A stretch of DNA of 64,000 nucleotides, taken from a virus. The notes under the pieces are model-generated. The model saw nothing but the letters and a program-made list of their open reading frames with translations. It searched no databases and had not been told where the DNA came from. Position numbers and translations under genes: made by a program. Shown here piece by piece: positions 1-54,478 of this stretch; positions within the stretch are counted from its first letter, which is position 1, and every line of letters starts with the position of its first letter. The stretch spans positions 18,498-82,497 of IMG/VR virus record IMGVR_UViG_3300043419_000898; one strand, written 5' to 3'.

Positions 1-618
1 TATGCCATTGTTGCACAAGAACAAGCAATCGGTTACCGATGTATTAAAGTTATAAGCCGAACCTGTTGTTTGACCTTCAATATATAATCCAACATCGCCA
101 TAAAAAATACATTTACTTATTGTTGAATCTAGAGGATTATTAGCAGATGTAGCTAATCGCACAATCCCTCTAGCACCACCACTTTGCGCAGACCACGTTG
201 AAAACACGCAGTTTTGCAATGTTATATTTCTTGCACTTGTAAATTGCGTATAACCATTACCAACTATATGCACATTTTGTAACGTCACATAAGTTTTAGC
301 GCAGGTTAATATATTCCCAAATGTCGGAACAACATTGTCTGATGCAAAATTTGTCATCAAAACAATGTTTGGAGTTACTCCAGAAAATTGTGATGCGACA
401 GGGTCTCCAGAGATTACGAGCGTTTGACTAACTGATGGCGTAACCGTCACTGTAGGAGATTCTCGGTAGATACCGGGCGCAATATATAAATAATTCGCAC
501 CACTCGTTAAAACCATATTGGCTAATGCATAAGTAATAGTTTGCCACGCCTGATTTGCAGCTGAACCAGTGCCTGCGTTGGCATTATTGCCGTCTGTCCT
601 AACGTAATAAGTCGCCAT
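1..618 (-). CDS. Beta-helix (pectin-lyase-like) tailspike/virion protein, paralogue 7, truncated by window edge
   Basis: Translated by hand from ATG at 618: MATYYVRTDGNNANAGTG...AWQTI...LYIAPGIYRE, the same N-terminus as six neighbours; open to position 1. Confidence 0.7.
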   Translation of the reverse strand, partial: MATYYVRTDGNNANAGTGSAANQAWQTITYALANMVLTSGANYLYIAPGIYRESPTVTVTPSVSQTLVISGDPVASQFSGVTPNIVLMTNFASDNVVPTFGNILTCAKTYVTLQNVHIVGNGYTQFTSARNITLQNCVFSTWSAQSGGARGIVRLATSANNPLDSTISKCIFYGDVGLYIEGQTTGSAYNFNTSVTDCLFLCNNGI

Positions 619-845
619 TATTCGGCATCTCCACTAATAATCTGTTGAGCCATAATCACTGCGAACTGTTGCACGATGCCATACTGAAACTGCTCATCCT
701 GCATCACCCACCAGACGTTGACCGATGTTCCATCATGTCCAAACGCTCCAAGGATGTTTCCAGCATCGTCTTCAATGTCACCAAATACACGCCAATCAGT
801 AGACGGTGCAGGTTCCTTTTCAATGCGGAAGTTTTGCAGGTTCAT
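618..845 (-). CDS. Small partner protein of the tailspike array (possible chaperone/adaptor)
   Basis: MNLQNFRIE..DWRVFGDIEDDAGNILG.FG.DGTS; paralogue of 6777..7067 and 12515..12961. Confidence 0.6.
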   Translation of the reverse strand: MNLQNFRIEKEPAPSTDWRVFGDIEDDAGNILGAFGHDGTSVNVWWVMQDEQFQYGIVQQFAVIMAQQIISGDAE

Positions 846-991
846 TTGCCCACCTTCAAAGCACTTGCCTGAACACCCTTGAAAGGCATCGTGAGGAACG
901 CCAGCACACTAGACACCGCAGCGGAGACTCCAGCCGCTACAGCCTTGCTCCCATATACCGCCATCACTGCTCCGTAGACCGTAGTATTCAT
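842..991 (-). CDS. 49-aa hydrophobic ORF, probable holin C-terminal fragment
   Basis: MNTTVYGAVMAVYGSKAVAAGVSAAVSSVLAFLTMPFKGVQASALKVGK; start and stop overlap both neighbours; loosely resembles the second half of 13530..13886. Confidence 0.45.
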   Translation of the reverse strand: MNTTVYGAVMAVYGSKAVAAGVSAAVSSVLAFLTMPFKGVQASALKVGK

Positions 992-3015
992 TACCGTCTC
1001 CTAACCCTTAGCATCATAGGTCCATGTATAGCAGTATCAGCACCGCCATTATTGCGCCTTGCGTATACCTTGTAATCGCCAGCCGTAGTAGTCACTACAG
1101 TATCGAGAATAAACGTCATCTCACCGTTTGACTCATACTGAATTGTCGGCGTATAGGTAGATATAAGGTTCCCAGATGAGTACACCTCTACGGTACACGT
1201 AGCGGCTCCTATAGGCACTGCTGTGTTGTACGTATCAACTATCTGCAACTTTACAGTTGTTGATGTACCTTGGATGATATCTAGTTCACCGTTTGCACCG
1301 AGTTGGTCAGATATCAACTTGTAGCCGGGAGTACTGATAAGCATAGATGCTTGGTCAAACTCTACGGTCACATATGCACCGTTAGTGCCAGATGCACCCT
1401 TGATAGTAAACGATGCTGTAGTAGTGTTGGCGGCTATCATCGCATTAGGAATATCGAACCTATAAAGTCCCGGCATCCTAACTGCATCTACTTCACAGAA
1501 GCCACCAGATACCCACGCTCCAGTTGGTGTCTGAGCAACCAGCGGTACGGTCACTGTAGCACTGTTGTTTCTGACGTAGTAGCAAACTAAGTTAGGCGTG
1601 TCGAATGATATGCCCGTAACACCTAGGAAGACATAAGTTGACTGACTTTGCGAACCGGGTGTAGTCCTGAATGTCGTTGTCTGTCGTTCTGATGGTATGT
1701 ACTGTCCAATAGTAGATAGGTCAACTCTGTTAGCCATACCGACAGTTGGTGCGGAACCAGTTGGATATGCAGTGCCAAACGCATCTGTTGTGTATCTAAA
1801 TCTACGATGCTGGATAGTTCCAGCAGTGGATGGAGTAAGACCAGTACAAGTGAAGGATGTAGTTCCGGTGACTGTTGCTACAGTGTATGTTTGCAGAGCA
1901 GTGATGTTGCCGAGTGTAGTCAAGAATTGAATCTTGTCACCAACAACATAGACGTTTCCACCAAGCGGAATTTCGGCAGAACCAGCAGTGATTCCAACAG
2001 ATAGAGAGTTTGGAGTGCCGGATGAGATGAGGTTACTACCAAGGCGTGGTGCATACCAGTCGTTTACACCAAGACCAAATAGTCGTTCCATACCGTGAGA
2101 TAGTGTTGGGTTACATATAACATTATTACTACCTACCGCTGTATTGAGTGCTACATTTGCGTAACCACTTTGAATCATACTTGATTTGTTGTAATCCGCA
2201 TAAATAGCATTAGCGATATTTGCTTGACAGTAGTTAAATGTAATCTGTTGTGCGTAGTTGTTGTAGTATTTTGCTTGCAATGTTGCATCAGTTACACCGG
2301 ACACTTCTAAGCACCTGTGTACTTGGTGAAACGTATTATTAAATACAAGCGTATTTGCAGGAGTATATCCAGTTAAGAATATTGCCCCGTTTCCAGCACC
2401 ATTTGCGTTTCCACCACCGGTGAAATAATTGTTGGCAATGACTGTATTTGACTCTATTGCTGATGAGCCAGCATGAGTAACTTGTAATATCACACTACCT
2501 ACAGCCGTCCTGCATAAGACTATGTTGTCAGTGAAAATAAAATTTAATGCCACATTGTTTGGGCTGCCGATAGTGCCAACATTACTCCAACAAATAAATG
2601 CACATTGGTCTACAATCCAGTTTGTACAAGTAGTTGCACTAAAACCGGTGTTCCAGTTTTCAAACAACAACTTACGAAAAGTTAAAAAGTTCTTTGATGT
2701 AGCAGTAAGAGCAGTTCCACTATAGTTAACTTGTGCGTTATCAGCCGCCGTAGATGTAATACGGACTACACCCGGTGTGATGTCGCTAAACTGAGTACAC
2801 GTAGGGTCACCAAGTATGTTTGTCTGAACAGTAGCCGAAATCATAGCGACAGTCAACGTCTCGTTGTATCGACCCGGTGCAATGTAAACCGTATCACCGG
2901 ACGAGATACCAGCCGCTCCTAGTGCCTTCTGTATAGTCTGCCAAGCCTGAAGCCGACCGGGTCCTAAACCAGTGTTAGCATCACTACCATCGTTACGGAC
3001 ATAGTATGTAGGCAT
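991..3015 (-). CDS. Beta-helix tailspike/virion protein, paralogue 6
   Basis: YYVR.DG.D.NTG / GDTVYIAPG.Y.E N-terminus, Asn/Cys-ladder repeats, conserved GGF.EV...PG.YR.DIP domain, Ig/BppU-like C-terminus. Confidence 0.7.
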   Translation of the reverse strand: MPTYYVRNDGSDANTGLGPGRLQAWQTIQKALGAAGISSGDTVYIAPGRYNETLTVAMISATVQTNILGDPTCTQFSDITPGVVRITSTAADNAQVNYSGTALTATSKNFLTFRKLLFENWNTGFSATTCTNWIVDQCAFICWSNVGTIGSPNNVALNFIFTDNIVLCRTAVGSVILQVTHAGSSAIESNTVIANNYFTGGGNANGAGNGAIFLTGYTPANTLVFNNTFHQVHRCLEVSGVTDATLQAKYYNNYAQQITFNYCQANIANAIYADYNKSSMIQSGYANVALNTAVGSNNVICNPTLSHGMERLFGLGVNDWYAPRLGSNLISSGTPNSLSVGITAGSAEIPLGGNVYVVGDKIQFLTTLGNITALQTYTVATVTGTTSFTCTGLTPSTAGTIQHRRFRYTTDAFGTAYPTGSAPTVGMANRVDLSTIGQYIPSERQTTTFRTTPGSQSQSTYVFLGVTGISFDTPNLVCYYVRNNSATVTVPLVAQTPTGAWVSGGFCEVDAVRMPGLYRFDIPNAMIAANTTTASFTIKGASGTNGAYVTVEFDQASMLISTPGYKLISDQLGANGELDIIQGTSTTVKLQIVDTYNTAVPIGAATCTVEVYSSGNLISTYTPTIQYESNGEMTFILDTVVTTTAGDYKVYARRNNGGADTAIHGPMMLRVRRR

Positions 3016-6775: not shown

Positions 6776-6776
6776 A

Positions 6777-33342: not shown

Positions 33343-33522
33343 GCATTCATTCTAGAACGCTTCATAACACCGAGCAATGAACACTTTATATTAGATAGTC
33401 TTCAGTTTGTCAATAGTAAAAAACACAAATAAAATAAATAAAAAACAACTTGTACGTTTTGATTTACCGTGGTTATAATGTAACCGACGGAAGTCAAACA
33501 CTAAAAGGAAGGGTAAAAAACA

Positions 33523-34089: not shown

Positions 34090-34392
34090 ATGACATTCAC
34101 TGAGATTTCCGATTTTGTCGCCAACGGACGAACTGTATACAGAACGTCTGAGCCTGAGCAGATGTACTTCATCTTTTCTGGTCGTATTGCAAACGTCGTT
34201 ATCTTTACTGCTGATACTGAGTATCTTCCTGAGCCGGGTAACGGATACTGCGTGTATACGCACGATGTAGAAGGAGTTGAGTACAAGATTATTGACGACT
34301 GGGTAATCTCAACTGACATGCTTGGTGCTGATGACTGGGAAGTTGTGCCAGATATGTCCATTGAATGGGGAGATAGAAATTCTGAGCGATGA
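34090..34392 (+). CDS. DUF2829/Tad2-like protein
   Basis: MTF.E....NG..V.R ... W....DMLGADDWEVV. Confidence 0.65.
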   Translation: MTFTEISDFVANGRTVYRTSEPEQMYFIFSGRIANVVIFTADTEYLPEPGNGYCVYTHDVEGVEYKIIDDWVISTDMLGADDWEVVPDMSIEWGDRNSER

Positions 34393-35021
34393 CATTCAAA
34401 GACATATTGCCACACCTTGAGTTAGGCTTATTCTGTCGTCGTAGGTCAGACTTGAATTACTACTACTTTATCTACGACGGAAAGAACTACAACTATCAAG
34501 TGGGGCTTGAGCCTGAAAATGGAAAGCCAGCACTTGGAAACGGATATAGAATTTCATCTAAGCCGGTAGTTGTCAACGGCTATTGTGGGTACACCTTAGA
34601 TGACTGGGAGCCTAACGAGCTCGACATGAGTGTGTCTGACTGGGAGGTTCCAGCGGTTGACCTTTTGCTACCTGAAGTAGTAATGGAGAAACAAGAAGTG
34701 GCACCAGTGGAAATCAAGAGGCTTGACACAAGCAAGCCGATATCAAAGCGACCACCACGGCAAAGAGAGCCAAAGAGCAACATAGACTTTGATGTAGCAC
34801 TTCTTCACCTAAAGAAGGGTGGCATCACTGAAGTGCCAACATACGAGCAAGGCGACATACTCGCTGTTCAGTACCAACTATTCAACAACATTACACTGAT
34901 GACTCGCAAGCGGTTATACGACAAAGTCTATGACGCATGGGTGCCATATCAGTGGCAAGCAAAAGACTTTGCCTGTATTGATTACAGGCTACTGAAAGCA
35001 AAGGATAAGAATGACTCCTAG
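34389..35021 (+). CDS. DUF2829/Tad2-like protein, two tandem domains
   Basis: MTF.D.L..L..G...RR..WEP...DM..SDWEV, then IDFDVAL.HLKKG...W.PY.....DF...DY. Confidence 0.6.
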   Translation: MTFKDILPHLELGLFCRRRSDLNYYYFIYDGKNYNYQVGLEPENGKPALGNGYRISSKPVVVNGYCGYTLDDWEPNELDMSVSDWEVPAVDLLLPEVVMEKQEVAPVEIKRLDTSKPISKRPPRQREPKSNIDFDVALLHLKKGGITEVPTYEQGDILAVQYQLFNNITLMTRKRLYDKVYDAWVPYQWQAKDFACIDYRLLKAKDKNDS

Positions 35022-35259
35022 AAAACGATACATCTACATGCTGAAGGCTGATGGTCAAAACGACAATCGTGTCTTTTACATCACAACAAAAGCAAAGTAT
35101 GTTATCTGTGAGATGCTAAAGAAGGGTGCTACTGAAGTCACCGTACTGCGAGCAGAACACGATGAGTTTAAGGCAAATCCTAACTGCGAAATGGAAGTAG
35201 TCACTGTGTGCGACAAGGTTTGGTGGAACGACTACTTGCAAGGAAAACGTGGATGGTAA
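35011..35259 (+). CDS. Hypothetical protein
   Basis: Coupled ORF in operon. Confidence 0.55.
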   Translation: MTPRKRYIYMLKADGQNDNRVFYITTKAKYVICEMLKKGATEVTVLRAEHDEFKANPNCEMEVVTVCDKVWWNDYLQGKRGW

Positions 35260-35645
35260 TCAACCTTTTGCCGACTGGTCACAAAGAGCAGTTCAGAGAG
35301 TCTTTTGTTTCTGAGGTAATCAGTGCCCTAAGAGAGCCTAATGAGACAACACATGAAGTCTATCTAGGTGACTACTACCTAAAAGTAGATAAGAAGTTCA
35401 TCACTGACATCGACTCAACAGATAAGAACTGGGAGCACGGTGTAATCAACTACGAGTTTGGATACACAGACAACAGCATTGAAGTGAATCCTATCAAGGG
35501 GCGTTTTGTTGGCGTAACTTTAATCTTTGCTGCACATCCGGAAATCATGATTGCTGATAGGTTTGACTACATCTACACACGATTAATCAACAACGTGTTG
35601 ACACAGGCAGAAGCAAAAGAATATTACGACGAACTTGACTACTAG
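35208..35645 (+). CDS. Hypothetical protein
   Basis: ORF in operon; start uncertain. Confidence 0.55.
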   Translation: MRQGLVERLLARKTWMVINLLPTGHKEQFRESFVSEVISALREPNETTHEVYLGDYYLKVDKKFITDIDSTDKNWEHGVINYEFGYTDNSIEVNPIKGRFVGVTLIFAAHPEIMIADRFDYIYTRLINNVLTQAEAKEYYDELDY

Positions 35646-35683
35646 TAGTTGACAAAGTACATGATAAGTGGTAAAACACTTAC

Positions 35684-35953
35684 ATGGAAAACAATAAGAA
35701 TAATGCACCACTTTGGTTTATCGGTGGGCTACTTTTAGGCGGTACTCCGATATTCCCATTTGCGTTCGGTTGCCTTGGATTGGTTTCAGTAATAGTCGTA
35801 TTTTCTATTGGTTCTGTTCTAAGTGCTCTGACTTATGCAGTAGTGCTGCACTGGAAGACGCTTTTGTTGTTTGTGATATTTGGCTCAGTATTCGCACTTC
35901 TCGGATACATGTACATGCTAGAGGAGAAGAAGAAGCGTGAAAATAAGGGCTAA
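35684..35953 (+). CDS. Membrane protein, leaderless
   Basis: Hydrophobic; TTGACA promoter at 35649. Confidence 0.55.
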   Translation: MENNKNNAPLWFIGGLLLGGTPIFPFAFGCLGLVSVIVVFSIGSVLSALTYAVVLHWKTLLLFVIFGSVFALLGYMYMLEEKKKRENKG

Positions 35954-36272
35954 CTATATTGACGTCACATGTGACCAGTATGTTGCTTGCCACATGTTGG
36001 TCATGTTCTACGAAACAAACGTCGTATCAGACTTCATCAAAATCACCGTATCTGACGTGCTTTCAAACGATGTGGGCATGGAACCGTTGGTTATGTATCC
36101 ATCTATTGACGATGAGGCTTGTACGTACAAAGTACGGATGATTCTTCGTGGCGTTGAAGAAATCAAAGTTTATCCATACGACATGCTTCATAAGATGTTG
36201 AATAATCGTCTAATACCTTTTTGGATGACCGAGATTGACAAGTGTGTAGCGTCCATGAAGGGGCTAAACTGA
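35937..36272 (+). CDS. Hypothetical protein
   Basis: GAGGAG RBS, GTG start. Confidence 0.55.
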   Translation: MKIRANYIDVTCDQYVACHMLVMFYETNVVSDFIKITVSDVLSNDVGMEPLVMYPSIDDEACTYKVRMILRGVEEIKVYPYDMLHKMLNNRLIPFWMTEIDKCVASMKGLN

Positions 36273-36514
36273 TGACGCTTGAAGAAGCACTCTTCTGGAT
36301 GCGTGATGGTAAAGCCGTTGTTTCCAAGAAGATGATGATGAAGTTCAAAATGGAGAGACGTCCAGTCAACCTAGGAGGCTCTACAAAGACATACTGGTTC
36401 ATAGAGTTTCAGCACATGAATACTAAGTTTCCAGAAGAATGGATACGGTGGCATAGTGCAAATGATGACTTCTTCGACTTGATAAACGACGATACGTGGG
36501 AGTTAGTACCATGA
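36272..36514 (+). CDS. DUF2829/Tad2-like protein
   Basis: MTLEEAL..M.DGK.V ... DL.NDD.WELV. Confidence 0.6.
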   Translation: MTLEEALFWMRDGKAVVSKKMMMKFKMERRPVNLGGSTKTYWFIEFQHMNTKFPEEWIRWHSANDDFFDLINDDTWELVP

Positions 36515-36702
36515 CAATCAATGATGCACTGCCGTTGCTTGATGAGAGAAAAATCATCTGTACGGCTTCACATCGTTTCAGGAAGAGCCGAATTGGCTAC
36601 GAGTGGACGAACGTAGGTGAGCCAGATATCTGGTGGCCAGTACAAGCAAAACTTGAGTTCATAGACATAACCGATGATTGGGTTTTAGAGGTAACAGAAT
36701 GA
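36511..36702 (+). CDS. DUF2829/Tad2-like protein (divergent)
   Basis: MTI.DAL..L...K ... W.P.....DITDDWVL. Confidence 0.5.
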   Translation: MTINDALPLLDERKIICTASHRFRKSRIGYEWTNVGEPDIWWPVQAKLEFIDITDDWVLEVTE

Positions 36703-36974
36703 CATTTCCAGAAGCACTAGCACACTTACTTGACTACAGAGTAATGCAACGAGTTGATGATGGCCAGACATTCAACTTCTGGTTCAACAAAGATACCGGA
36801 AGCGGCATGTACGAAGAAGATGAGTTTATGTTTGCAAGCATGTGGTTTGTTTCTATTGACGACTTTACTGACGAAAACTGGGAGTTTACAGATAAAGCAA
36901 CAGAAGCACGTATCAAAGAGAAGTATAGTGCGAATCACAAGTATGTAAAAGGCATTGGCTTAGCACGTAAGTAA
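36699..36974 (+). CDS. DUF2829/Tad2-like protein (divergent)
   Basis: MTFPEAL..L.....M.R ... SIDDF..ENWEF. Confidence 0.55.
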   Translation: MTFPEALAHLLDYRVMQRVDDGQTFNFWFNKDTGSGMYEEDEFMFASMWFVSIDDFTDENWEFTDKATEARIKEKYSANHKYVKGIGLARK

Positions 36975-37064
36975 GCCAATTAACGAAATGTAGGCACCAT
37001 GAAAATGGTGTCTTTTTTTATTTGTACTATTTACAATCTGACAACAAGGATGTATAGTGACTAC

Positions 37065-37256
37065 ATGAGATTTGCTGAAGTTATAGATGCTTTGATAAAT
37101 GGGAAGAAGGTTAGACGGGCTTCTTGGCAGCAAGTAGGCGGATGTGTCACGTGTGACTTTACACAGATGACCATCTCCATTGGCGGTGTTGACAGTCCAT
37201 TCAGCCTAAACACAATTTCTTTACTTGCTGATGACTGGGAGGTGCTTGATGACTAG
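37065..37256 (+). CDS. DUF2829/Tad2-like protein
   Basis: MRF.E...AL..GKKVRR.SW ... LLADDWEVL. Confidence 0.75.
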   Translation: MRFAEVIDALINGKKVRRASWQQVGGCVTCDFTQMTISIGGVDSPFSLNTISLLADDWEVLDD

Positions 37257-37593
37257 TCAAGAGTTAGTGGATTGTTTGCTTGATGGCAAAACGTTGACTC
37301 ATTCTTTCTTTGGAAGGAACGGTCGTGTTCACATATTGAACGTAGCAGAAGAGCACGATGCTTACCAACGTCTTGTTGTTGTTTATAGGGATGGAGAGAT
37401 TGGCTGGAATCGACAGACTTATAAAGAGACGCTTGAACGCTCAAAGTTAGAGAACTTCTTAAAGCACATCTACATAGACACACTGAACATATACCGTGAT
37501 AACACGCTTATGATGCCAGAGCAGTATCAACTATTCAAGAAAGCATATAACGAGTCAGATTGGTCAATCTGGGAGCCTACAGATGAAGTTTAG
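37249..37593 (+). CDS. DUF2829/Tad2-like protein with large insertion
   Basis: MT.QE...CLLDGK.L ... SDWSIW. Confidence 0.45.
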   Translation: MTSQELVDCLLDGKTLTHSFFGRNGRVHILNVAEEHDAYQRLVVVYRDGEIGWNRQTYKETLERSKLENFLKHIYIDTLNIYRDNTLMMPEQYQLFKKAYNESDWSIWEPTDEV

Positions 37594-37849
37594 AGCAAAG
37601 CCTTCTGGCTGCAAGTACTTGTCAAAAAGAGACCAAGAAGCAATACGGTTCTGCATGAACTACTTCAGGGAGAATCCAACAGAACTTTCATGCACGTTGT
37701 ACGAAGTGCTTGAAGATGGTACTGAGCAGATAGTCGGAAATATCGCAAACCCTGAGTTTGAAAAACTGGAAGAAGACGTCGTAAGACTCATGTCTATCTA
37801 TACGCACTTCAAGAAAAAGGGTGAGCCTACACCAGAGATGTGGCAATAA
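37583..37849 (+). CDS. Hypothetical protein
   Basis: GGAG RBS, coupled. Confidence 0.55.
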   Translation: MKFRAKPSGCKYLSKRDQEAIRFCMNYFRENPTELSCTLYEVLEDGTEQIVGNIANPEFEKLEEDVVRLMSIYTHFKKKGEPTPEMWQ

Positions 37850-38042
37850 GATGCTTTTCAGCACATTAACAGACTTGCAGAACGTAGTGTTAGGACTACC
37901 TCAGTATGCAACTGAGCCTCCTAAATGGTTTATACATAGGGAGCATTACGCCTTGATTATAAAGTCACAGTACAAGTATGCAAAGGCTATTCGCAAAGCC
38001 AAGGCACGTAAAAAGCGTATCAATTCGAAGTGTGGAAGGTAA
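37821..38042 (+). CDS. Hypothetical basic protein
   Basis: ORF in operon. Confidence 0.45.
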   Translation: MSLHQRCGNKMLFSTLTDLQNVVLGLPQYATEPPKWFIHREHYALIIKSQYKYAKAIRKAKARKKRINSKCGR

Positions 38043-38045
38043 TCA

Positions 38046-38279
38046 ATGACTGGACTTGAAGCACTTGAATTATTGCGGAATAGCGACACTAAAGTCAAAC
38101 GTGCCGAATGGAGAAGTGATGAATACCTAAGAGCATATGGCAACGGTCAGGGTATATGTCCATCATTAGGCTACCACCGTAAACGGGGAGAGGACTGTTA
38201 CTATCCAGAGGATGCTGTTACTTTAACCGATGACATTTTAAACGACTTTACAGCAGACGATTGGGAGGCAGTGGAATGA
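38046..38279 (+). CDS. DUF2829/Tad2-like protein
   Basis: MTG.EALELL.....VKR.EW ... DF.ADDWE.V. Confidence 0.7.
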   Translation: MTGLEALELLRNSDTKVKRAEWRSDEYLRAYGNGQGICPSLGYHRKRGEDCYYPEDAVTLTDDILNDFTADDWEAVE

Positions 38280-38497
38280 CAATACACGAAATAAGCCCAT
38301 CTGTTTCCAAAGGCTTTCCATTTAAACGTGATGTCTGGCCACAAAAGCTTTACTACTACTACGACAGAGATGACCAGTGGTTTATCCAAGTTAACTCAGA
38401 GACTGGATGCGAAATCATCATGTACACACTTGACCTAAATCTTGAAGACTTGATGGCTACTGACTGGAGTGTTGACGAGTGGGAGGTAGAAGAATGA
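38276..38497 (+). CDS. DUF2829/Tad2-like protein
   Basis: MTI.E.....KG...KR..W ... L.LEDLMATDW.V. Confidence 0.7.
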   Translation: MTIHEISPSVSKGFPFKRDVWPQKLYYYYDRDDQWFIQVNSETGCEIIMYTLDLNLEDLMATDWSVDEWEVEE

Positions 38498-38703
38498 GTG
38501 GAGTGGAGGCACTAGCCTTAGCCAAGCACGGCATGAAGGTAACTTGTCACAACTGGTACGACAAAGATAATCCTTGGGACTACTCCGCATGGATTGAAGA
38601 AGGATGTATAGTGAATAGCCCGTACGAAGGTATGAGTGCATACGACGCCACAAACGCCTTTCTGGCAGACCTACTACATCAAGAATGGGAAGTACTTGAG
38701 TAA
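38494..38703 (+). CDS. DUF2829/Tad2-like protein
   Basis: MSG.EAL..AK.G.KV....W ... DLL..EWEVL. Confidence 0.6.
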   Translation: MSGVEALALAKHGMKVTCHNWYDKDNPWDYSAWIEEGCIVNSPYEGMSAYDATNAFLADLLHQEWEVLE

Positions 38704-39032
38704 TGGAGCACGACTCATACAAGTGGATTATGGAGCAGTATCCAAAGACATCTGAAACGCTGGTCTTTGAGAGAGTCTGTGATGCACTACATGCACGTAA
38801 GTCATATGACAGAACGCTAGACACAGACGAAGACATCGTCAAGGTTGCAATCAAAGTCAGCCCTATTTCAAAGCAAGTGCGGGTAGGCATTAAGTTCAAA
38901 AACCCAGATGTCTGGATAAGTGACGCTGCCCCTACGGAGCCGTATAAGTATTCATACATGTATATGGGACTTCTGGAGAGCATTATTTGCTCTTATCAAT
39001 TGTGCAAGAAGTTTGACGCTGAACAACTATGA
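38703..39032 (+). CDS. Hypothetical protein
   Basis: TAATG-coupled. Confidence 0.55.
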   Translation: MEHDSYKWIMEQYPKTSETLVFERVCDALHARKSYDRTLDTDEDIVKVAIKVSPISKQVRVGIKFKNPDVWISDAAPTEPYKYSYMYMGLLESIICSYQLCKKFDAEQL

Positions 39033-39331
39033 AGATAACACTCAAACACCGTGTGTACACGCACGACGACGGCACTAAAACAGACGTCTATGACCCAGAG
39101 GTTGAGGGCAAAGATGTAGGAATGCTCGTCCATGGGTTTAAGTTGGACTATGAAGTCTGGCGTCCACTAGGCTCTGAACTGGAATTCGTCATAAGGAAAC
39201 TAGTACGTGACGAAGAGAACCCACGACAGTATTTGACAGACGAAAATCTCAAGCCACTCAACGTTGATGTGCATATGCATGTCAAGTCAGTGACCATAGA
39301 GTTTGAAGAAATTTATCCACCAACTGGATAG
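39029..39331 (+). CDS. Hypothetical protein
   Basis: ATGA-coupled. Confidence 0.55.
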   Translation: MKITLKHRVYTHDDGTKTDVYDPEVEGKDVGMLVHGFKLDYEVWRPLGSELEFVIRKLVRDEENPRQYLTDENLKPLNVDVHMHVKSVTIEFEEIYPPTG

Positions 39332-39434
39332 ATATTATCCACCAGTTTCCTGACTGACCGTTTGAAAATTAACTTGTACTAGATATCCTTTGGACATCTT
39401 TAGGGGGTATGAGTAATGTCGGTTAGGATTTTTT

Positions 39435-39506
39435 GGGCAGTTAGCTCAACGGTTGAGCAGCAAACTCATAATTTGTTGGTTAGGGGTTCGAATCCCTTAC
39501 TGCCCA
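39435..39506 (+). tRNA. tRNA with CAU anticodon (Ile2-like, or Met); CCA not encoded
   Basis: Acceptor GGGCAGT/ACTGCCC+A; D-arm GCTC..GAGC; anticodon arm GCAAA-CTCATAA-TTTGT; T-arm AGGGG-TTCGAAT-CCCTT. Confidence 0.92.
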
Positions 39507-39571
39507 TAGATGTTTGAAAGACATCTTCCATACGATACAATAGGACTTCCATTACAAAACTCCTTACTCTA

Positions 39572-39610
39572 AACCCAGATGCATCTCCCGCATCTGGGTT
39601 CTTTTTTTTT
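39572..39610 (+). terminator. Intrinsic terminator after tRNA
   Basis: AACCCAGATGC...GCATCTGGGTT then T9. Confidence 0.75.
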
Positions 39611-39704
39611 GTGGTAGGATGAAATTGCCACCGAAAGGTGAGCATTTGAACGAAAGACCAGAGAAATCTGGGCTACGTCCGACAAACACATACTCTGCAA
39701 ACAG

Positions 39705-39734
39705 AAAGACCAGTTCTCCAGACTGGTCTTTTTT
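39705..39734 (+). terminator. Terminator/attenuator just upstream of ORF 39747
   Basis: AAAGACCAGT-7nt-ACTGGTCTTT-TTT. Confidence 0.65.
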
Positions 39735-39746
39735 GTTAGGTGACCT

Positions 39747-39983
39747 ATGACCGGTGAAGAAGTACTACCACTCTTACGTAAAGGCAAACTGATGAGGCGA
39801 AAAGCATGGAGTCCAAAGCTGCATGTCTTCATGAGGCAGATGGGTGATACCTACTACCTATTCGCTCAAGGGGCTGATGTCTTTGACCTTATGGACGACA
39901 AAATCAAACTGTCCGACTTCTTCTATGACGACTGGGAAATATATGTTGATATAGTTGACAACAGTAAGCCATCAGATGTATAA
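39747..39983 (+). CDS. DUF2829/Tad2-like protein
   Basis: MTG.E.L.LL.KGK.MRRK.W ... LSDF..DDWEI. Confidence 0.72.
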   Translation: MTGEEVLPLLRKGKLMRRKAWSPKLHVFMRQMGDTYYLFAQGADVFDLMDDKIKLSDFFYDDWEIYVDIVDNSKPSDV

Positions 39984-39991
39984 TTTACTCA

Positions 39992-40246
39992 ATGGGTAGA
40001 TACTCAAGAGTATCTTTAGGAGTAAGTATGCTGGATATGTCGTTTGACCCTATATGGGCATTGAAGCAAGGGTATACAGTTGTTACTGAGTATCCAAACA
40101 ACACGTCATTTCACTACAAAATCATCGACGGGAAGTTAAAGTCGAAATGCACTTTCTATGTAGATGACTTCTGGAAAGATGCTGGTTATTTCGTACTTGG
40201 TGTAGACGTTAAGTGCTCACTTATCCCACCGGAGCCACCAATTTGA
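39992..40246 (+). CDS. Hypothetical protein, weakly DUF2829-like N-terminus
   Basis: ALKQG..V; TTGACA-18-TATAAT leaderless promoter upstream. Confidence 0.45.
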   Translation: MGRYSRVSLGVSMLDMSFDPIWALKQGYTVVTEYPNNTSFHYKIIDGKLKSKCTFYVDDFWKDAGYFVLGVDVKCSLIPPEPPI

Positions 40247-40464
40247 CAGTAGATACAGCAATCAAAAGTATCCTTGAGGGACATCGAGTAATCAACGACT
40301 CAAGCATGAGTTTTACTGAGATTCACTACGACAAAGAGTCTAAGTACTTCATATACTCCATCCAAGGGGTTGAGTCCATGAGGGATAGGAAGTTAATGCT
40401 GGCGTTATCTGATTTAAAAAGTAAGGACTGGAAGATAGTTGACATTCGGACAAGCACTACATAG
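40243..40464 (+). CDS. DUF2829/Tad2-like protein
   Basis: TTG start; T...AI..I.EG.RV ... LSDL.S.DW.IV. Confidence 0.6.
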   Translation: MTVDTAIKSILEGHRVINDSSMSFTEIHYDKESKYFIYSIQGVESMRDRKLMLALSDLKSKDWKIVDIRTSTT

Positions 40465-40654
40465 TTTGAAAAAAGGTTTCACTGTGACTCGTACATACGT
40501 TGAGTCCGACGCTGTTGTTGTTGTGTTTTGTAAATTCACAAACAACCAAAGACTGGTTAGAAAGAAAGTCACAAGTAGACATCAGTCCGACTGGAGGCTT
40601 TCTGGTTGGTCACTCAAGGATATGTCCGCAACTGACTGGATAGTCGCTGGATGA
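40439..40654 (+). CDS. DUF2829/Tad2-like protein
   Basis: MTFGQAL..LKKG..V.R ... S..DM.ATDW.V. Confidence 0.75.
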   Translation: MTFGQALHSLKKGFTVTRTYVESDAVVVVFCKFTNNQRLVRKKVTSRHQSDWRLSGWSLKDMSATDWIVAG

Positions 40655-40833
40655 CAGCCACAGAGGCTTATGACTGGGTTATATCTGGCGGCAAAGTTAG
40701 ACATGCTACTTGGTCTATGGACACATACGCTTTCCTACATCATGGAGTAGTCAGTTATACGGATGGAACGTATCTGACAACTTGTCCGCCGTTTGAATTC
40801 TTTTCAAATAACTGGCAGATATATACAAAGTAG
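40651..40833 (+). CDS. DUF2829/Tad2-like protein
   Basis: MT..EA.....G.KVR...W ... NNWQIY. Confidence 0.6.
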   Translation: MTATEAYDWVISGGKVRHATWSMDTYAFLHHGVVSYTDGTYLTTCPPFEFFSNNWQIYTK

Positions 40834-40925
40834 GATACACTTATCATGAACGTAGATGCCTTATAGCATCTTTAGGAAAGTAAGGGAAGATAGATATCCA
40901 AGGATATCTTTGAAGGGAAAACAAC

Positions 40926-41303
40926 ATGGACTTTGTAACGATTATCGGTTTGACGTTTGGGCATTGGTTTGCTGACTTTGTGTTGCAGACACGTAAGATT
41001 GCAGAAACCAAGTCAAAGAGTTTTCGGTCGCTGTTTACTCACGTAGCCTTGTATACAGCCGCACTTGCTTGTGTGATGGTGCCTATCCTTATCCGACAGT
41101 ATGACTGGAGGTTGATTGTGTCTTTCATCCTTCTCAATGGTTTCTGCCATCTGGTCACTGACTTTGGAACATCTAAGATGTCAGCCGCCGCATACAAGGA
41201 CGAAGACAAGAGCCAGTTCTGGCAAATCATCGGCTTTGACCAGTCTATCCACTGGAGTCACTTACTGATTACTTACTTTGGCTTCTTCGTATGGGGTAAC
41301 TAG
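40926..41303 (+). CDS. DUF3307 family membrane protein
   Basis: HW.ADF.LQ, H...Y, H..TD, IGFDQ..H motifs. Confidence 0.8.
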   Translation: MDFVTIIGLTFGHWFADFVLQTRKIAETKSKSFRSLFTHVALYTAALACVMVPILIRQYDWRLIVSFILLNGFCHLVTDFGTSKMSAAAYKDEDKSQFWQIIGFDQSIHWSHLLITYFGFFVWGN

Positions 41304-41304
41304 T

Positions 41305-41766
41305 ATGTGGGATAACAGTAAGCGAGTGAAACCATCCTATGAAGAGATATACCAACGAACAACAAAAGACGTTCTTGACTTAGTAGTCTCTCTTAGAGAG
41401 AAGCGTTACTCGTTTGACCGGATAGCCGGATACCTACATGAGAATGGTTATCAATCACCTCATGCTAAGTGGAATCCACATACGCTTAGTCGGCTGATGA
41501 AGATTCACGGGTTAGAGGAAAAGCAACTTTACAAGGTGCCAGACTACCGGCATATCAATGAGATACTTGAACTAAAAGAGTCGGGTATGTCTTTTAGGGA
41601 TATTGTTTCCCATCTAAACAATACCGGCAAGCGTAGACCGAGTGGTTTACCGTTTTGTGTCCATAGGCTTAGGGTTTACATACGGCAGTATCACATACTG
41701 AAAGAAAGGTATGGGGCTGAGATGGACAAGTACACCGTAGCGAGAGAGGAAGAAGATGACATTTGA
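41305..41766 (+). CDS. DNA-binding protein with two recombinase-type HTH repeats
   Basis: LR....SF..IA..L...G.....W twice; no serine-recombinase catalytic domain. Confidence 0.6.
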   Translation: MWDNSKRVKPSYEEIYQRTTKDVLDLVVSLREKRYSFDRIAGYLHENGYQSPHAKWNPHTLSRLMKIHGLEEKQLYKVPDYRHINEILELKESGMSFRDIVSHLNNTGKRRPSGLPFCVHRLRVYIRQYHILKERYGAEMDKYTVAREEEDDI

Positions 41767-42007
41767 AGAAGCAGTCAAAGCCATGGATAACGGGGCTTTT
41801 GTTCGAAGGGCTGGTTGGTCTAAGAACATCAAGTTGTATGCCGCGTATCCAGCAGAAGAAGATGCTGAGCCGATAAACAATAAGCGGCATATCTTTGCAC
41901 AGATTGACTCATACGAGCCAGAGTATGCCATATTTCGGTTATCCGATATCTATGGCGATGACTGGTACGTAGTAAACGACGACAACACTACAGACGACGA
42001 GTTATAG
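41756..42007 (+). CDS. DUF2829/Tad2-like protein
   Basis: MTFEEA..AM..G..VRR.GW ... SDI..DDW.VV. Confidence 0.8.
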   Translation: MTFEEAVKAMDNGAFVRRAGWSKNIKLYAAYPAEEDAEPINNKRHIFAQIDSYEPEYAIFRLSDIYGDDWYVVNDDNTTDDEL

Positions 42008-42015
42008 GAGACAAC

Positions 42016-42306
42016 ATGAAAAAGACGTGGGAAGAGAAGTTCGATGCGGCTTGTCAGTATAGTTACAATGACTTAATCATTGATGGTCAATGTACATATC
42101 CAGAGGCACTTATCAACGGATATAGAGCCATCATTGAAATGGTCACGACTGAGAAAGCTTGCAGTTTCTCGTACAACTGTGGCGGTTGGCATATCTTCTA
42201 CACAAGGAAAAAGAAGAAGTTTTCTCCTAAGGAAGAGTTCTTGCTGGAAGTTATCAAGAGTGCCAAACATGGTTACTCTAGTTACGACACGGAGGATTAT
42301 AGATGA
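42016..42306 (+). CDS. Hypothetical protein
   Basis: AGGAG RBS. Confidence 0.55.
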   Translation: MKKTWEEKFDAACQYSYNDLIIDGQCTYPEALINGYRAIIEMVTTEKACSFSYNCGGWHIFYTRKKKKFSPKEEFLLEVIKSAKHGYSSYDTEDYR

Positions 42307-42503
42307 CGTTTGGTCAGATTTACGGGTTAGTCAAAAAGGGACGCTGGTTTGGTCGTAGTAGCCAACCAAAGAGTCGGACATGCATGGTAGCGGATACATT
42401 CCTTATCCACGACTTGTCGGAAGATGGAAGCATCATCAAGTGGAATGTTCTTTCACTAACAACAGAAGACATGATGGCTGATGACTGGGAAGTCTACAGT
42501 TAA
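42303..42503 (+). CDS. DUF2829/Tad2-like protein
   Basis: MTFGQ....VKKG....R ... L..EDMMADDWEVY. Confidence 0.75.
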   Translation: MTFGQIYGLVKKGRWFGRSSQPKSRTCMVADTFLIHDLSEDGSIIKWNVLSLTTEDMMADDWEVYS

Positions 42504-44431: not shown

Positions 44432-44551
44432 TTACTTGACTAGATTGCCAAGTGTAACGATAACAGCGACGATGATAGAGAAGGACAAAAGTCCACCGAT
44501 GATAAGAGCAAGGTTGATTGCTTCGGCTTTTGTTGTTTGTGGAAGTTCCAT
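44432..44551 (-). CDS. 39-aa single-TM protein
   Basis: MELPQTTKAEAINLALIIGGLLSFSIIVAVIVTLGNLVK; paralogue at 45265; not in ORF track. Confidence 0.65.
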   Translation of the reverse strand: MELPQTTKAEAINLALIIGGLLSFSIIVAVIVTLGNLVK

Positions 44552-45001
44552 GCCTCAATACTACAGCAGATTGTATACGTATGCAAGACATTTTCCAGAT
44601 ATATTTTCCTATCCTAAATGCCTTATTTGCATCAGTTTGCCTACCATGCATAGCATTTATGAAATGCCTCTGTAGGCTCAAATTTGGCGATTCTACGGAC
44701 TTTGTATACGTTATGGCATAACTTATCGATTTGACGTCAAAACGGCTCTATTTAGGCAAATCTAAGAGTCCGCCCAATGCAGGCTTTGAAGTAGCGTTAC
44801 TGACAGTCACCATTCATGGTGACGTATAGTCACATCGGACTTTACAGGAGTTAGTTGCGTAGTCAACAATTGATAAATCAACTACTTGTGGCAACTACTC
44901 AAATAACCTGCCGTAGCTGCTAGGTGTGACTATTAGTCACATGCCAGTGATAAACAAAAGCCGGATGATTTCTCATCCGGCTTGATGCAACCGTGGTAGG
45001 T

Positions 45002-45241
45002 TTACTCGGTTATGTAATCCGAGTAATTCCAAACCTTGACTTTGTAGGTTTGACCCTTGAAGTTTGTCAATTGCCAAACCTCATTGAGTCCCCAAACCTT
45101 GATAAGTTTCGCACTTATCAATTCTGGATGCATGATATCCAAGCCGAATTCACGGCTGTAGAAAATCTCGATACGAGCCTTATTAAGGCTTGCCTCACGG
45201 GTGAGGCTTTCAGCGAGTGCGATTTCTTGTGTCTTAGTCAT
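45002..45241 (-). CDS. Hypothetical cassette protein
   Basis: AGGGAACCAAAAATG. Confidence 0.65.
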   Translation of the reverse strand: MTKTQEIALAESLTREASLNKARIEIFYSREFGLDIMHPELISAKLIKVWGLNEVWQLTNFKGQTYKVKVWNYSDYITE

Positions 45242-45264
45242 TTTTGGTTCCCTATACTTTCCGA

Positions 45265-45381
45265 TTACTTTACGAGATTTCCAAGCGTTATCAGAACGCC
45301 TACGATGATTGCAAAGGATGTAAATCCGCCGACGATGAGTGCAAGGTTGATTACTTCAGCCTTAGTGGTTTGAGGTTGCAT
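45265..45381 (-). CDS. 38-aa single-TM protein, leaderless
   Basis: MQPQTTKAEVINLALIVGGFTSFAIIVGVLITLGNLVK; TTGACA...TAGTAT promoter directly upstream. Confidence 0.65.
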   Translation of the reverse strand: MQPQTTKAEVINLALIVGGFTSFAIIVGVLITLGNLVK

Positions 45382-45857
45382 GTAAAGATACTACAGCCAA
45401 GCGTTAGAGAATGTCAATAGGGTATTTGCATATTCAACAAAAATAGTTTTGCATATCCTAAAAATAGTTTGAAGGTATACAAATGCCATCATTTCCGCCT
45501 ATAAACCGATGAGCCTATAGGATTTGGATATACCGCTGTAGGCTCAAATTTGGCGATTCTAGCGGGTTTGTATACGTTATTGGATAGTTTATCGGTTTGG
45601 TTACAAAACGAGCGTATTTAGGCAAATTCGGAAGTTTGCCCGCCGCAGGCTTCGAGTCGCCGATACTGACAGTCACCATGTAAGGTGACGCACAGTCACA
45701 CCACGGTTGACAGGATAGTTGTTGCTAAATCAATAGTTGCATAATCAACTAAACGACAGACAACAGAAAAAGTCCTGCCGTACGGCTGGTAGTTGCATAA
45801 TCAACAAACGCTTGACATAAGTAAACCGGATGATTTCTCATCCGGTTTGACTATTAA

Positions 45858-46193
45858 CTAATCTTCGCCTTCGTCTTCGGTGTCTTCGTCGTCGTCTTCG
45901 TCGTCGTCTTCGGATATCCAAAGTGCATCATATGCATTTCCATACGCTTTGGCATCCATTTGCATCATTTCGTTTGCACACTCAGCAGATACCTTTAGAG
46001 TATCTGCAAGTTTACTGATGCTGATTTCAGTACCAGTAAATCCATTAGCGTCAAAAATGCGATAGATGTGAGCCGATGTATTTCTGGCATCACGTGATGC
46101 CAATTTCATAATGCCATTTCTGGTAGCAACAAAGTCACCGGAGTACAAGCGAGTCAGTGCCGAATCGGTCGGCATCGGTAGTAAGGTTCCCAT
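45858..46193 (-). CDS. Hypothetical cassette protein with acidic tail, leaderless
   Basis: TAATAT-6nt-ATGGGAACC. Confidence 0.65.
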   Translation of the reverse strand: MGTLLPMPTDSALTRLYSGDFVATRNGIMKLASRDARNTSAHIYRIFDANGFTGTEISISKLADTLKVSAECANEMMQMDAKAYGNAYDALWISEDDDEDDDEDTEDEGED

Positions 46194-46553
46194 GCATCAA
46201 TATTACCATTTTGTCACCTTGACGCAAGTAAATATATGGTACGTATACAAAAATAGTTAATGCCTCTATAGGCTCAAATTTGGCTATTCTAGACACTTAT
46301 CATGCCAGATGAGTTATGTATCGGACGGTATGCAAAACGGCTCTATTTAGGCAATGTGGAGGTTCCGCCCAATGCAGGGCTTTGGAGTAAGGTGACTGGT
46401 AGTCACCGTGTAAGGTGACCTATAGTCACGTGCTAGATAGCAGGACTACTGCTGAGTATGGCAGCCTGTAGGTAGTTGATTTTGCAACGATAGGATGGCA
46501 TAAGTAAACCGGCTGGACATCCAGCCGGTTGGAGTCTACGTAGTGGTGGTGAC

Positions 46554-46913
46554 CTACTTGGAGTAGGTCATCGTACCGTGAAAGTCTACGTACAAGTCGG
46601 TGGTGTCCATCACAACGTGAAAGCCTACCGTGATATGCTGGACGCTTTCAGTCATGTCTACCGACATGTCTATGGACTTGACATTTCCATTTGATGCACA
46701 GACGTTTACCAATTCCACAACGTCGGTGATGTCATACGACTTGTGATTTGTTATCATGCCATCCACTACAGTAGTGGATGTGTAGTAGCAGAAATTTGCC
46801 ATTTTGGCTACGTTGTGGACGCTATTTTGCGTCATCTGAAGTATTCCAGATGTGTAGGTGATGTCGCCTTGTACAGCGATGTCAGAGGCGATGATAGCAG
46901 ATAAGATTGTCAT
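46554..46913 (-). CDS. Hypothetical cassette protein
   Basis: AGGGAACCGACAAATG. Confidence 0.65.
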   Translation of the reverse strand: MTILSAIIASDIAVQGDITYTSGILQMTQNSVHNVAKMANFCYYTSTTVVDGMITNHKSYDITDVVELVNVCASNGNVKSIDMSVDMTESVQHITVGFHVVMDTTDLYVDFHGTMTYSK

Positions 46914-47183
46914 TTGTCGGTTCCCTATTAAGTCAGTGTAGGTCGTTTCCTACACCACTATGTTACCACTTTGTCTACCTATCGCAAATAAATAGTCGGA
47001 CTATTTTTGCCATTTACCAGTGATAGGCATGGTGACTATTAGTCACGTAGCAGATGGCAGGAACGGCTCACAGTATGGCAGCCTGTAGCAGTCGGTCGGT
47101 CGTTGCATAATCAACAAAGCCGTGACATAAATAAACCGGTTGGATTTCTCCAACCGGTTGTATGCCTACGTAGTGGATGTGGA

Positions 47184-47396
47184 TTAGAAATCCAAGTCTA
47201 CATCCGTTTTCGCAATTACCTTGACGGTACGACCGCTCTGGAGCGTCACGCTCCAGACTTCGGTATCACCCTTTGTACGGATGATTTTCGCATCCACCAT
47301 ATCGGTAAACGTGGCATACGTCATATTGGACGTACGTGACACAAGAATGTCCATGCGGATATCCGCTCCGGTGGTGGTGGTGGTAAATGTTGTCAT
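47184..47396 (-). CDS. Hypothetical cassette protein
   Basis: AGGGAACCAAAAATG defines the start. Confidence 0.65.
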   Translation of the reverse strand: MTTFTTTTTGADIRMDILVSRTSNMTYATFTDMVDAKIIRTKGDTEVWSVTLQSGRTVKVIAKTDVDLDF

Positions 47397-47413
47397 TTTT
47401 GGTTCCCTTTCCT

Positions 47414-47665
47414 TCAAACAAAGAATGTCATTTTGACATTTGCATTTTCACACTTGATGTGCGAAACGTTTCCTTCAACGGTGAAAACGGTTACAACGTT
47501 GGACATTGCAACCCAAGCGGTGAATTCATCCGCCGTGCTATCTTCAGATGCCGATACTACACCACGGCGGATGGTATCGAATGTGATTTCCATATCGGCA
47601 TTTGCCATGGCATGGAAGTCGCAATTGTAGCAGAAGACATTTTTGAGGTTCACGGTAGTATTCAC
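47414..47665 (-). CDS. Hypothetical cassette protein, leaderless
   Basis: GTGAATACTAC start just after TATAAT. Confidence 0.6.
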   Translation of the reverse strand: MNTTVNLKNVFCYNCDFHAMANADMEITFDTIRRGVVSASEDSTADEFTAWVAMSNVVTVFTVEGNVSHIKCENANVKMTFFV

Positions 47666-48989: not shown

Positions 48990-49307
48990 TTACTTGGAAC
49001 GTGCTGGCCACGTGCCATACCGGATAACACCGGCATCGATGTACATAACACCGGTGAACGTGTCATCGGTAGTACCATCGCGGAATTCCTTGAATGCTAC
49101 GTTCATCCGAACCATTCTTTGCCCTTGCTGTGTGCCATGCACGATGCCACGTGCTACGCTACCGTCGCCTAAGATAGCGGACGCTTGACGGATGCCGAAT
49201 TGTTCGAACAGCATTTTTTCCGCTTGCTTTACAGCGATGGCATTTGCCGCGACGGAGTCGGAGGACGTGTCTACCGTGTCCCAACCGGTTGGTGTAGTGT
49301 TTTCCAT
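48990..49307 (-). CDS. MENTT-leader cassette protein
   Basis: ATGGAAAACACTAC leaderless start. Confidence 0.7.
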   Translation of the reverse strand: MENTTPTGWDTVDTSSDSVAANAIAVKQAEKMLFEQFGIRQASAILGDGSVARGIVHGTQQGQRMVRMNVAFKEFRDGTTDDTFTGVMYIDAGVIRYGTWPARSK

Positions 49308-49591
49308 ACCTAATGGTATCACCTATTGTCACCTATGCAAACTATTTATCGGATATATTTTCGGCAGTTTACCAGTGAAATTTCAAATTCATGGTGACAG
49401 ATAGTCACGGCTAGCTTCTCCGACAGGCTGCCATCCCTACTGTAAGTCCTGCCAAGCCGGGATGTGACGGATAGTCACGTGTGACTTTTGGTCACATCAA
49501 AATCGAAATGTGACTGGAAGTCACCTATCAGGCATAATGCCCAATGCAGGGGTGCTGTCACCACCCCCCCCCCCGCTGGTACCCGCTCCGA

Positions 49592-54472: not shown

Positions 54473-54478
54473 GTCTAT

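Follow-up and report, generated by a model that had tools for sequence, protein, structure and literature searches.

At least 13 predicted Tad2-family paralogues in one strain-variable array of an uncultured freshwater phage

Introduction

The Tad2 family of phage proteins (Pfam PF11195, Tad2-like/DUF2829) is among the few sponge families in phages for which plasticity of ligand choice has been proven. Its founding member, the Thoeris anti-defence 2 protein of phage SPO1, assembles along helix alpha1 into a tetramer, and it contacts glycocyclic ADP-ribose (gcADPR) through W25, N26, W73 and D79, with further contacts at T78, I63 and T65 and waters on D67, H71 and S76 (10.1101/2023.05.01.538930). 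Here we describe an array of genes of this family at positions 34,090 to 42,503 of a 64,000-nt stretch of viral DNA, hereafter the window, which covers bases 18498-82497 of the 82,497-bp IMG/VR record IMGVR_UViG_3300043419_000898, rated complete by CheckV.

Two further preprints indicate how far the Tad2 scaffold can be retuned. In HgmTad2, the substitutions W21A/N22A and S90A/T92A/D93A weaken gcADPR binding, and cyclic dinucleotides bind elsewhere, in an inter-strand insertion of 40 residues (32-72) (10.1101/2023.11.15.567273). Homologues differ in ligand, with 3' cyclic ADP-ribose (3'cADPR), histidine-ADP-ribose (His-ADPR), N7-cyclic ADP-ribose (N7-cADPR), cyclic dinucleotides and cyclic UMP or CMP (cUMP/cCMP) all described, and between them they inhibit CBASS, Pycsar and three Thoeris types using two different pockets (10.1101/2025.08.24.671296; 10.1101/2023.11.15.567273). 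The solved Tad2 proteins in these sources are homotetramers whose fold has a five-stranded antiparallel sheet after an N-terminal helix, and their pockets sit between protomers.

Results

A tandem array of Tad2-family genes

Judged by sequence, the array holds at least 13, perhaps 16, old Tad2/DUF2829 paralogues whose content varies between strains. The 17 open reading frames (ORFs) that an initial annotation had assigned to the family, named here by their start positions, are all present, all on the + strand, and many are joined by 4-bp start/stop overlaps (Table 1). The PF11195 profile supports nine of the 17 at E <= 0.01 and leaves eight without a match. Five reach its gathering score of 25 bits (37065, 39747, 40439, 41756 and 42303); the other four stay below this cut-off, 34090 with 24.8 bits. 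For the eight ORFs without a Pfam match PHROGs was of no help, apart from 40651, which matches two unnamed families.

Two more profiles were run against the full set of 577 six-frame ORFs from the 82.5-kb genome. An in-genome profile, seeded from the nine Pfam-positive ORFs and iterated, recruits 11 ORFs, all within 34090-42503 on the + strand. A broad profile built from 285 database domains places 13 ORFs at E <= 3.6e-6, all in the array, adding 36699 and 38494. Below them rank 37249 and 36511 (both E 0.019), then the top-scoring ORF from elsewhere in the genome (0.037), then 36272 (0.23); ORF 39992 does not appear in the output at all. The broad profile contains no window sequence, yet it is not fully independent, because its proteins were found via the array profile and include orthologues (P0011 for 36699). 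Five shuffles of the 577-ORF set gave no match at E <= 1e-3. When the weaker ORFs were aligned to the broad profile with hhalign, probabilities were 95% for 36699, 91% for 38494, 73% for 36272, 63% for 36511, 37% for 37249 and 0.8% for 39992, against 0.1-1.6% for twelve neighbouring non-member ORFs or pieces used as controls. The alignments of 36272, 36511 and 37249 are confined to the first 17-21 residues.

We therefore count 13 firm members, three possible diverged members (36272, 36511 and 37249) and one unsupported ORF, all by sequence criteria. The massive expansion proposed in the initial annotation is borne out, with 13 of 577 ORFs and none in shuffles, but its figure of about 17 holds for 13; three more resemble the family at the N-terminus only, and 39992 was rejected as a member, since it has no Pfam or PHROG match and an hhalign value like the controls. 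The second domain that had been read into 34389 is likewise rejected (domain E 29, hhalign 1.6%), its C-terminal half resembling the controls.

Searched against solved structures, a profile made from the 17 ORFs finds Tad2 chains (8kbi, 1.2e-6; 8wje, 7.2e-6; 8sme, 8.1e-6; 9eib, 1.4e-5; 8v3e, 1.9e-5; AcrIIA7 9kzr, 5e-5; SptTad2 8wjd, 6.7e-4), in agreement with the equation of DUF2829 with Tad2 in the initial annotation. A profile of firm members and orthologues finds 4,072 of 1.84 billion representative proteins at E <= 1e-3. The predicted Tad2-family assignment of the array holds. The copies keep an N-terminal helix (MTFxEAxxxLxxGxxV) and a C-terminal D-x-x-A-D-D-W-E-V segment; the loop after the first strand, the entire middle and the residues preceding the DW motif vary. 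As noticed earlier, the middles are wholly different: they cannot be aligned to each other, nor to HgmTad2.

ORF 37065 is the copy nearest to the wider family. For the possible member 37249, five relatives were found at 47-89% identity (four database proteins and an orthologue in a sister phage), and with the database relatives included its family alignment is still limited to 27 N-terminal residues. Compared with a PF11195 cluster, an ESM Atlas model of 37249 has TM-scores of 0.47/0.59, no more than a lead.

Divergence, constraint and strain turnover

The paralogues are old and strongly diverged. Their identity to 41756 is 16-33% in a MAFFT alignment, and only three paralogue pairs are found by BLASTP at 1e-4. 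Recent duplication or a diversity-generating mechanism was rejected as the source of the copies, given that DNA repeats in the array are just 14-26-nt stretches over two protein motifs.

A sister phage, IMGVR_UViG_3300020050_009836 (G001; 83,860 bp), carries a syntenic array and has 97%, 96% and 92% identity to the window phage in the large terminase subunit (TerL), head protein and portal, respectively. BLASTP finds an orthologue there for 13 of the 17 array proteins at 42-87% identity, and tblastn adds a counterpart of 40651 at 57% with an in-frame TAG at codon 7. This last copy (G001 57966-58145; L021 ~7967-8146) may be decaying or may use an alternative start. The ratio of nonsynonymous to synonymous substitution rates (dN/dS) could be computed for 10 of 14 array pairs and was 0.07-0.41, rough values since most dS exceed 1, compared with 0.03-0.08 for head, terminase and portal. 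All 10 array values lie well under 1, and the array genes are real and constrained. The unsupported ORF 39992 is also a conserved gene, with a G001 counterpart at 47% identity and dN/dS 0.20. Single paralogues have near-orthologues in a protein library as well (P0005, 96% to 39747; P0046, 88% to 42303).

The content of the array is not fixed. G001 lacks counterparts of ORFs 38046, 38494 and 39747, and it carries an extra member of its own at the position of 38494. We also compared the array with contigs from public runs X3, X7, X11 and X20. A 37-kb contig from X3, a freshwater metagenome of another study, carries the whole array at ~97% identity: over 8,601 bases, 237 letters differ and there are 39 gaps. 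In a contig from X11, a third study, 241 other letters replace 38024-38262, which holds the 38046 gene. In the same X11 population a 73-nt stretch at 39531-39605, which includes a terminator, is likewise swapped. All runs that share at least a quarter of the sampled words come from metagenomes labelled freshwater, aquatic or pond, and they represent 10 studies. IMG/VR scans with 38276, 37249 and 36272 returned only G001/G002 or a chance fragment.

Arrays and fusions in other phages

Among the 150 best library relatives (P0001-P0150), 124 have two domains, 21 have one, four have three and one has four; this ranking favours multi-domain proteins, scores being summed. Linkers have a median of 1 residue, and domain envelopes a median of 66 amino acids. 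Four domains were counted in P0002 and likewise in P0001, where the search matched five stretches. In the 124 two-domain fusions, the pocket aromatic is kept in the second domain in 41 and in the first in 13; for the pocket Asp the numbers are 43 and 13.

An IMG/VR pattern scan that used a narrower alignment turned up, besides G001/G002, 29 loci. We then counted domains in the 10 kb flanking each locus on either side, keeping profile and thresholds the same throughout: 15 loci have a single domain and 14 have two or more, eight of these with five to ten. By this count the window phage has 13, the most seen here, and G001 reaches 11. The eight loci rich in domains (L032, L041, L044, L046 and L048-L051), among them contigs of 166 kb and 358 kb, have members in common and appear to form one wider lineage; the Trp at the W25-equivalent is retained in most of their copies. 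TerL of the window phage has no match in five other array-bearing records, only one of which is complete, so that this says little on kinship. In a more distant phage, G004 (TerL 51%), four ORFs in tandem show the family pattern (L023 712-1687, - strand) where a 15-kb contig ends; two of them are significant with the in-genome profile and two are alike by eye only. A tblastn search of 50,697 phage records with 41756 and P0098 gave nothing at 1e-3.

Ligand-binding positions and interpretation of the array

We read the array as a set of diverged Tad2-scaffold binders of different immune signals, and we put the chances of this reading at about even. Each copy would be a small binder, expressed early and assembling on the Tad2 scaffold. 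The paralogues would have diverged toward different targets, most likely different host nucleotide-type immune signals that they take up as sponges, and the array would turn over between strains as anti-defence loci do. Immune signals are the likeliest targets because of the known functions of the Tad2 family. In the solved proteins, the tetramer is built by the N-terminal helix, and the parts that vary here hold gcADPR or, in HgmTad2, cyclic dinucleotides. A panel of sponges covering many messengers, as the initial annotation had it, is a plausible hypothesis.

Several observations weigh against the sponge reading. We mapped the pocket by sequence alignment only (HMMER alignment to solved chains, anchors and hmmalign), with SPO1 W25, N26, W73 and D79 (and S76, T78) corresponding to HgmTad2 W21, N22, S90, T92 and D93. 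By alignment, the complete gcADPR residue set of SPO1 Tad2 or HgmTad2 is present in none of the 17 copies. The W25-equivalent is Trp in seven (37065, 38046, 38276, 38494, 39747, 40651 and 41756), the N26-equivalent is never Asn, the W73-equivalent is Trp in three (34090, 34389 and 36699) and the D79-equivalent is Asp in 11; the two Trp residues never occur together in one copy. Among the 285 domains from the 150 best database relatives, 254 keep the W25-equivalent and 157 the D79-equivalent. The array copies appear atypical, because Li et al. predicted the gcADPR site to be non-functional in only ~1% of the Tad2 proteins analysed (10.1101/2023.11.15.567273). By BLASTP, copies without the W25-equivalent match their own orthologues only, and those with it match the wider family. 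The copies are also small, 60-100 amino acids compared with 89-104 for SPO1 Tad2 and HgmTad2, so the part of the middle that makes the dimer contact or the cyclic-dinucleotide pocket is probably missing or different. Finally, an RNA-library run (X20) gave five short contigs on the array; there is no silent-stretch control, and they do not prove transcription.

The 60-73-amino-acid copies are too short for a 40-residue insertion; the middles of 34090 and 34389 are longer. A complex prediction with four copies of 41756 (alignment A4) gave scores of 0.22 and 0.25, short of the mark of 0.42, and as it was run without controls it speaks neither for nor against an oligomer. The array appears to keep the scaffold motifs and to have diverged at the ligand-holding positions of the solved Tad2 proteins.

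The same pattern could mean that the scaffold has been re-purposed, with pocket-less copies binding host or phage proteins as inhibitors or decoys, one target per paralogue. The loss of the ADPR-holding residues in most copies while scaffold motifs persist, the purifying selection on each copy and the restriction of the copies without W25 to the lineage of the window phage would all fit, and one DUF2829 protein, AcrIIA7, was once reported as an anti-CRISPR. That anti-Cas9 activity was not reproduced by Li et al. (10.1101/2023.11.15.567273, for both statements), every family function proven in the sources as available to us is sequestration of a small molecule, and the array itself keeps the stacking Trp in seven copies and the Asp in 11. 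We regard re-purposing as unlikely, though a serious contender.

A role outside host immunity, such as regulation or host takeover by another route, or a collection of many redundant relics, seems more improbable still. The neighbouring genes encode small proteins without known function and one G001 orthologue carries a stop, as such a role or decay might lead one to expect. Relics would hardly show dN/dS well below 1 in 10 of 10 computable pairs, have their own orthologues in several samples for each paralogue, or persist as a whole array at ~97% identity in a contig from another study.

Mixed oligomers are a related idea: pockets lie between protomers, and mixing of subunits could make many pockets from few genes. 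In its fullest form this would be a combinatorial trap for immune signals, in which half-pocket subunits on a shared helix form hetero-oligomers with pockets that include ones for undiscovered alarm molecules. Solved Tad2 pockets do lie at protomer interfaces, the tetramer-building helix is the part that the paralogues have kept, the W25- and W73-equivalents are carried by different genes and the array genes are translationally coupled. Fusions might point the same way, with 124 of the 150 best database relatives being two-domain proteins with a median 1-residue linker, and with a 38046-like first domain in P0035. However, the two-domain ranking is inflated by summed scores, and both domains keep the Trp in 100 of the 124 fusions, which are therefore no sign of complementation. 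Fusion of two neighbouring array genes was not seen, and strain-variable content fits independent units better than fixed partners. No support was found for the hetero-oligomers suggested in the initial annotation, and both mixing in general and the combinatorial trap are in our view long shots. Chance similarity among short ORFs, suggested at most by the four of 17 that are weak or unsupported, has next to no probability overall and is refuted for the 13 ORFs at E <= 3.6e-6, which lie in one 8.4-kb stretch on one strand, have no shuffled equal and yield a profile that matches solved structures.

Expression signals and genomic setting

Promoter- and terminator-like sites (Table 1) suggest that the array is split into several transcription units; across the sequence, 26 promoter-like sites were found against 21.2 expected in shuffles, which is no enrichment. 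At four junctions the Trp-Glu codons of the upstream member (TGGGAG, in the DWEV motif) supply a GGGAG 8-12 nt before the next ATG, so the C-terminal motif doubles as a putative ribosome-binding site.

The carrier is an uncultured freshwater tailed phage. Its head protein has <30% identity to any of 50,697 deposited phages, and the array DNA, in near and distant DNA searches against these records, has the tRNA-Met gene as its sole match. The array is head-to-tail and translationally coupled, in a small-gene accessory region: on the + strand there is no ORF of at least 180 amino acids from 35021 to 60468, which places it inside a long small-gene region. Apart from the DUF3307 and 162-amino-acid proteins listed in Table 1, no family was assigned to the other genes interspersed in the array. 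Two T-run hairpins lie 3' of the tRNA-Met within 39434-39733 (39572-39600, and ~39705-39733 by eye); the tRNA-Met stretch has no match in G001. Downstream of the array, 44436-47417 and 48990-55346 contain additional families of small repeated ORFs as well as DNA repeats.

The - strand carries a second family of tandem paralogues, in window 1-12982 and beyond its upstream edge. This family has seven ORFs of ~590-674 amino acids and three small companions. No PHROG or Pfam family was found for it except for a weak Invasin_D3 match in one ORF, and its members may be receptor-binding proteins.

Table 1. Array ORFs, expression signals and other features, in window coordinates. The broad profile is that of 285 database domains; identity and dN/dS are relative to G001.
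Feature	Coordinates	Strand	Observations
ORF 34090	34090..34392	+	firm, 100 aa; PF11195 24.8 bits, E 3.3e-5; broad profile 1.1e-9; W at W73-equivalent, W25-equivalent absent; orthologue 65% identity, dN/dS 0.13
ORF 34389	34389..35021	+	firm domain, aa 1-93; PF11195 E 0.0016; broad profile 3.6e-7; C-terminal 115 aa of unassigned kind
ORF 36272	36272..36514	+	possible, 80 aa; no Pfam match; hhalign 73-79%, first 17 residues; broad profile 0.23; orthologue 85% identity
ORF 36511	36511..36702	+	possible, 63 aa; no PF11195 match; hhalign 63-68%, N-terminal 20-30 residues; broad profile 0.019; dN/dS 0.26
ORF 36699	36699..36974	+	firm, 91 aa; broad profile 1.4e-7; hhalign 92-95%; W73/S76/D79-equivalents kept, no W25-equivalent
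ORF 37065	37065..37256	+	firm, 63 aa; PF11195 33.8 bits; BLASTP matches to many database representatives
ORF 37249	37249..37593	+	possible, 114 aa, long differing middle; hhalign 24-37%, N-terminus only; broad profile 0.019
ORF 38046	38046..38279	+	firm, 77 aa; PF11195 E 9.4e-4; broad profile 1.6e-10
ORF 38276	38276..38497	+	firm, 73 aa; PF11195 E 8.6e-4; broad profile 5.6e-11
ORF 38494	38494..38703	+	firm, 69 aa; broad profile 2.2e-7; hhalign 55-91%
ORF 39747	39747..39983	+	firm, 78 aa; PF11195 25.2 bits
ORF 39992	39992..40246	+	84 aa; membership unsupported
ORF 40243	40243..40464	+	firm, 73 aa, TTG start; in-genome profile 4.5e-4, then recruited; broad profile 3.6e-6
ORF 40439	40439..40654	+	firm, 71 aa, TTG start; PF11195 30 bits
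ORF 40651	40651..40833	+	firm, 60 aa; in-genome profile 2.2e-5; broad profile 1.7e-9
ORF 41756	41756..42007	+	firm, 83 aa; top Pfam score, 37.1 bits, E 4.6e-9; dN/dS 0.07
ORF 42303	42303..42503	+	firm, 66 aa; PF11195 25.1 bits; orthologue 42% identity, dN/dS 0.41
Promoter-like site	33407-33435		consensus scan
Terminator-like hairpin	36992-37013	+	consensus scan
Promoter-like site	37030-37058	+	consensus scan
Strong terminator-like hairpin	39572-39600	+	inside array
Perfect sigma-70-type consensus, TTGACA-18 nt-TATAAT	39955-39984	+	just 5' of 39992
DWEV/Shine-Dalgarno-like overlap	36490-36511		before 36511
DWEV/Shine-Dalgarno-like overlap	37229-37249		before 37249
DWEV/Shine-Dalgarno-like overlap	38256-38276		before 38276
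DWEV/Shine-Dalgarno-like overlap	38474-38494		before 38494
tRNA-Met	39434-39507	+	mid-array
DUF3307 membrane protein	40926-41303		inside array; E 3.1e-10
162-aa protein	41278-41766		inside array; weak recombinase-domain and helix-turn-helix matches
Major head protein	15483-16844		PHROGs match
Portal	19356-21125		PHROGs match
TerL	23868-25319		PHROGs match
Second-family ORF	-1175..618	-	
Second-family ORF	991-3015	-	
Second-family ORF	3015-4877	-	
Second-family ORF	4877-6775	-	
Second-family ORF	7085-8863	-	
Second-family ORF	8863-10686	-	
Second-family ORF	10686-12515	-	
Companion small ORF	618-845	-	
Companion small ORF	6777-7067	-	
Companion small ORF	12515-12982	-	

Discussion

That one phage keeps at least 13 copies, long diverged and under purifying selection, suggests either hosts with many signals or uses of the scaffold beyond the known pockets. 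At 60-100 amino acids the copies should be easily expressed, and the array could serve as a test set for new defence-system specificities; molecules carried by copies from infected cells could reveal new immune messengers. If the combinatorial trap were true, each paralogue or pair would be a bait for undiscovered alarm molecules. Arrays of 5-10 copies in other uncultured phages, together with the common two-domain fusions, point to a general and undescribed mode of use of this family. In the literature as available to us, we found no multi-copy Tad2 arrays or two-domain short forms, though supplementary homologue tables may list such proteins.

Relatives with a similar organization are the array of G001 and the proteins and loci from the searches above. 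The G001 array is syntenic, with proteins 42-87% identical, but three window members have no counterpart there and one G001 member has none here. The proteins P0001-P0150 and the eight rich loci repeat the same short domain head to tail, within one fused protein or in 5-10 adjacent genes. Those protein relatives mostly keep the W25-equivalent (254 of 285 domains), whereas the array has lost this Trp in about half of its copies.

SPO1 Tad2 (Gp34.65; 8SME/8SMF/8SMG and 8WJE) belongs to the same Pfam family as the array, whose profile matches it at ~8e-6 over nearly its full length. Both have the N-terminal helix motif and a C-terminal D-x-L-A-E-D-W motif, and SPO1 Tad2 is, like the array genes, a small protein from a phage accessory region. 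It is a single gene of 89 amino acids, compared with 13 or more genes of 60-100 amino acids in the array, and its W25, N26, W73 and D79 are never all present in an array copy.

HgmTad2/AcrIIA7 (8KBI-8KBM, 8WJC), with which we group SptTad2 (8WJD), is the top Protein Data Bank match of the array profile (1.2e-6). The starts of HgmTad2 and the array proteins align residue for residue, and HgmTad2 W21 therefore equals array position 21. The set W21/N22 and S90/T92/D93 is not retained in the array. In HgmTad2 the 40-residue inter-strand insertion binds cyclic dinucleotides, whereas the middles of the array copies are shorter and unrelated. MoTad2/ModTad2 (9EIB, 8V3E) and the homologues in 10.1101/2025.08.24.671296 have the scaffold retuned to His-ADPR, cUMP/cCMP and N7-cADPR. 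This is the kind of divergence proposed here for the array, but those proteins are single genes in different phages, whereas the array copies share one genome.

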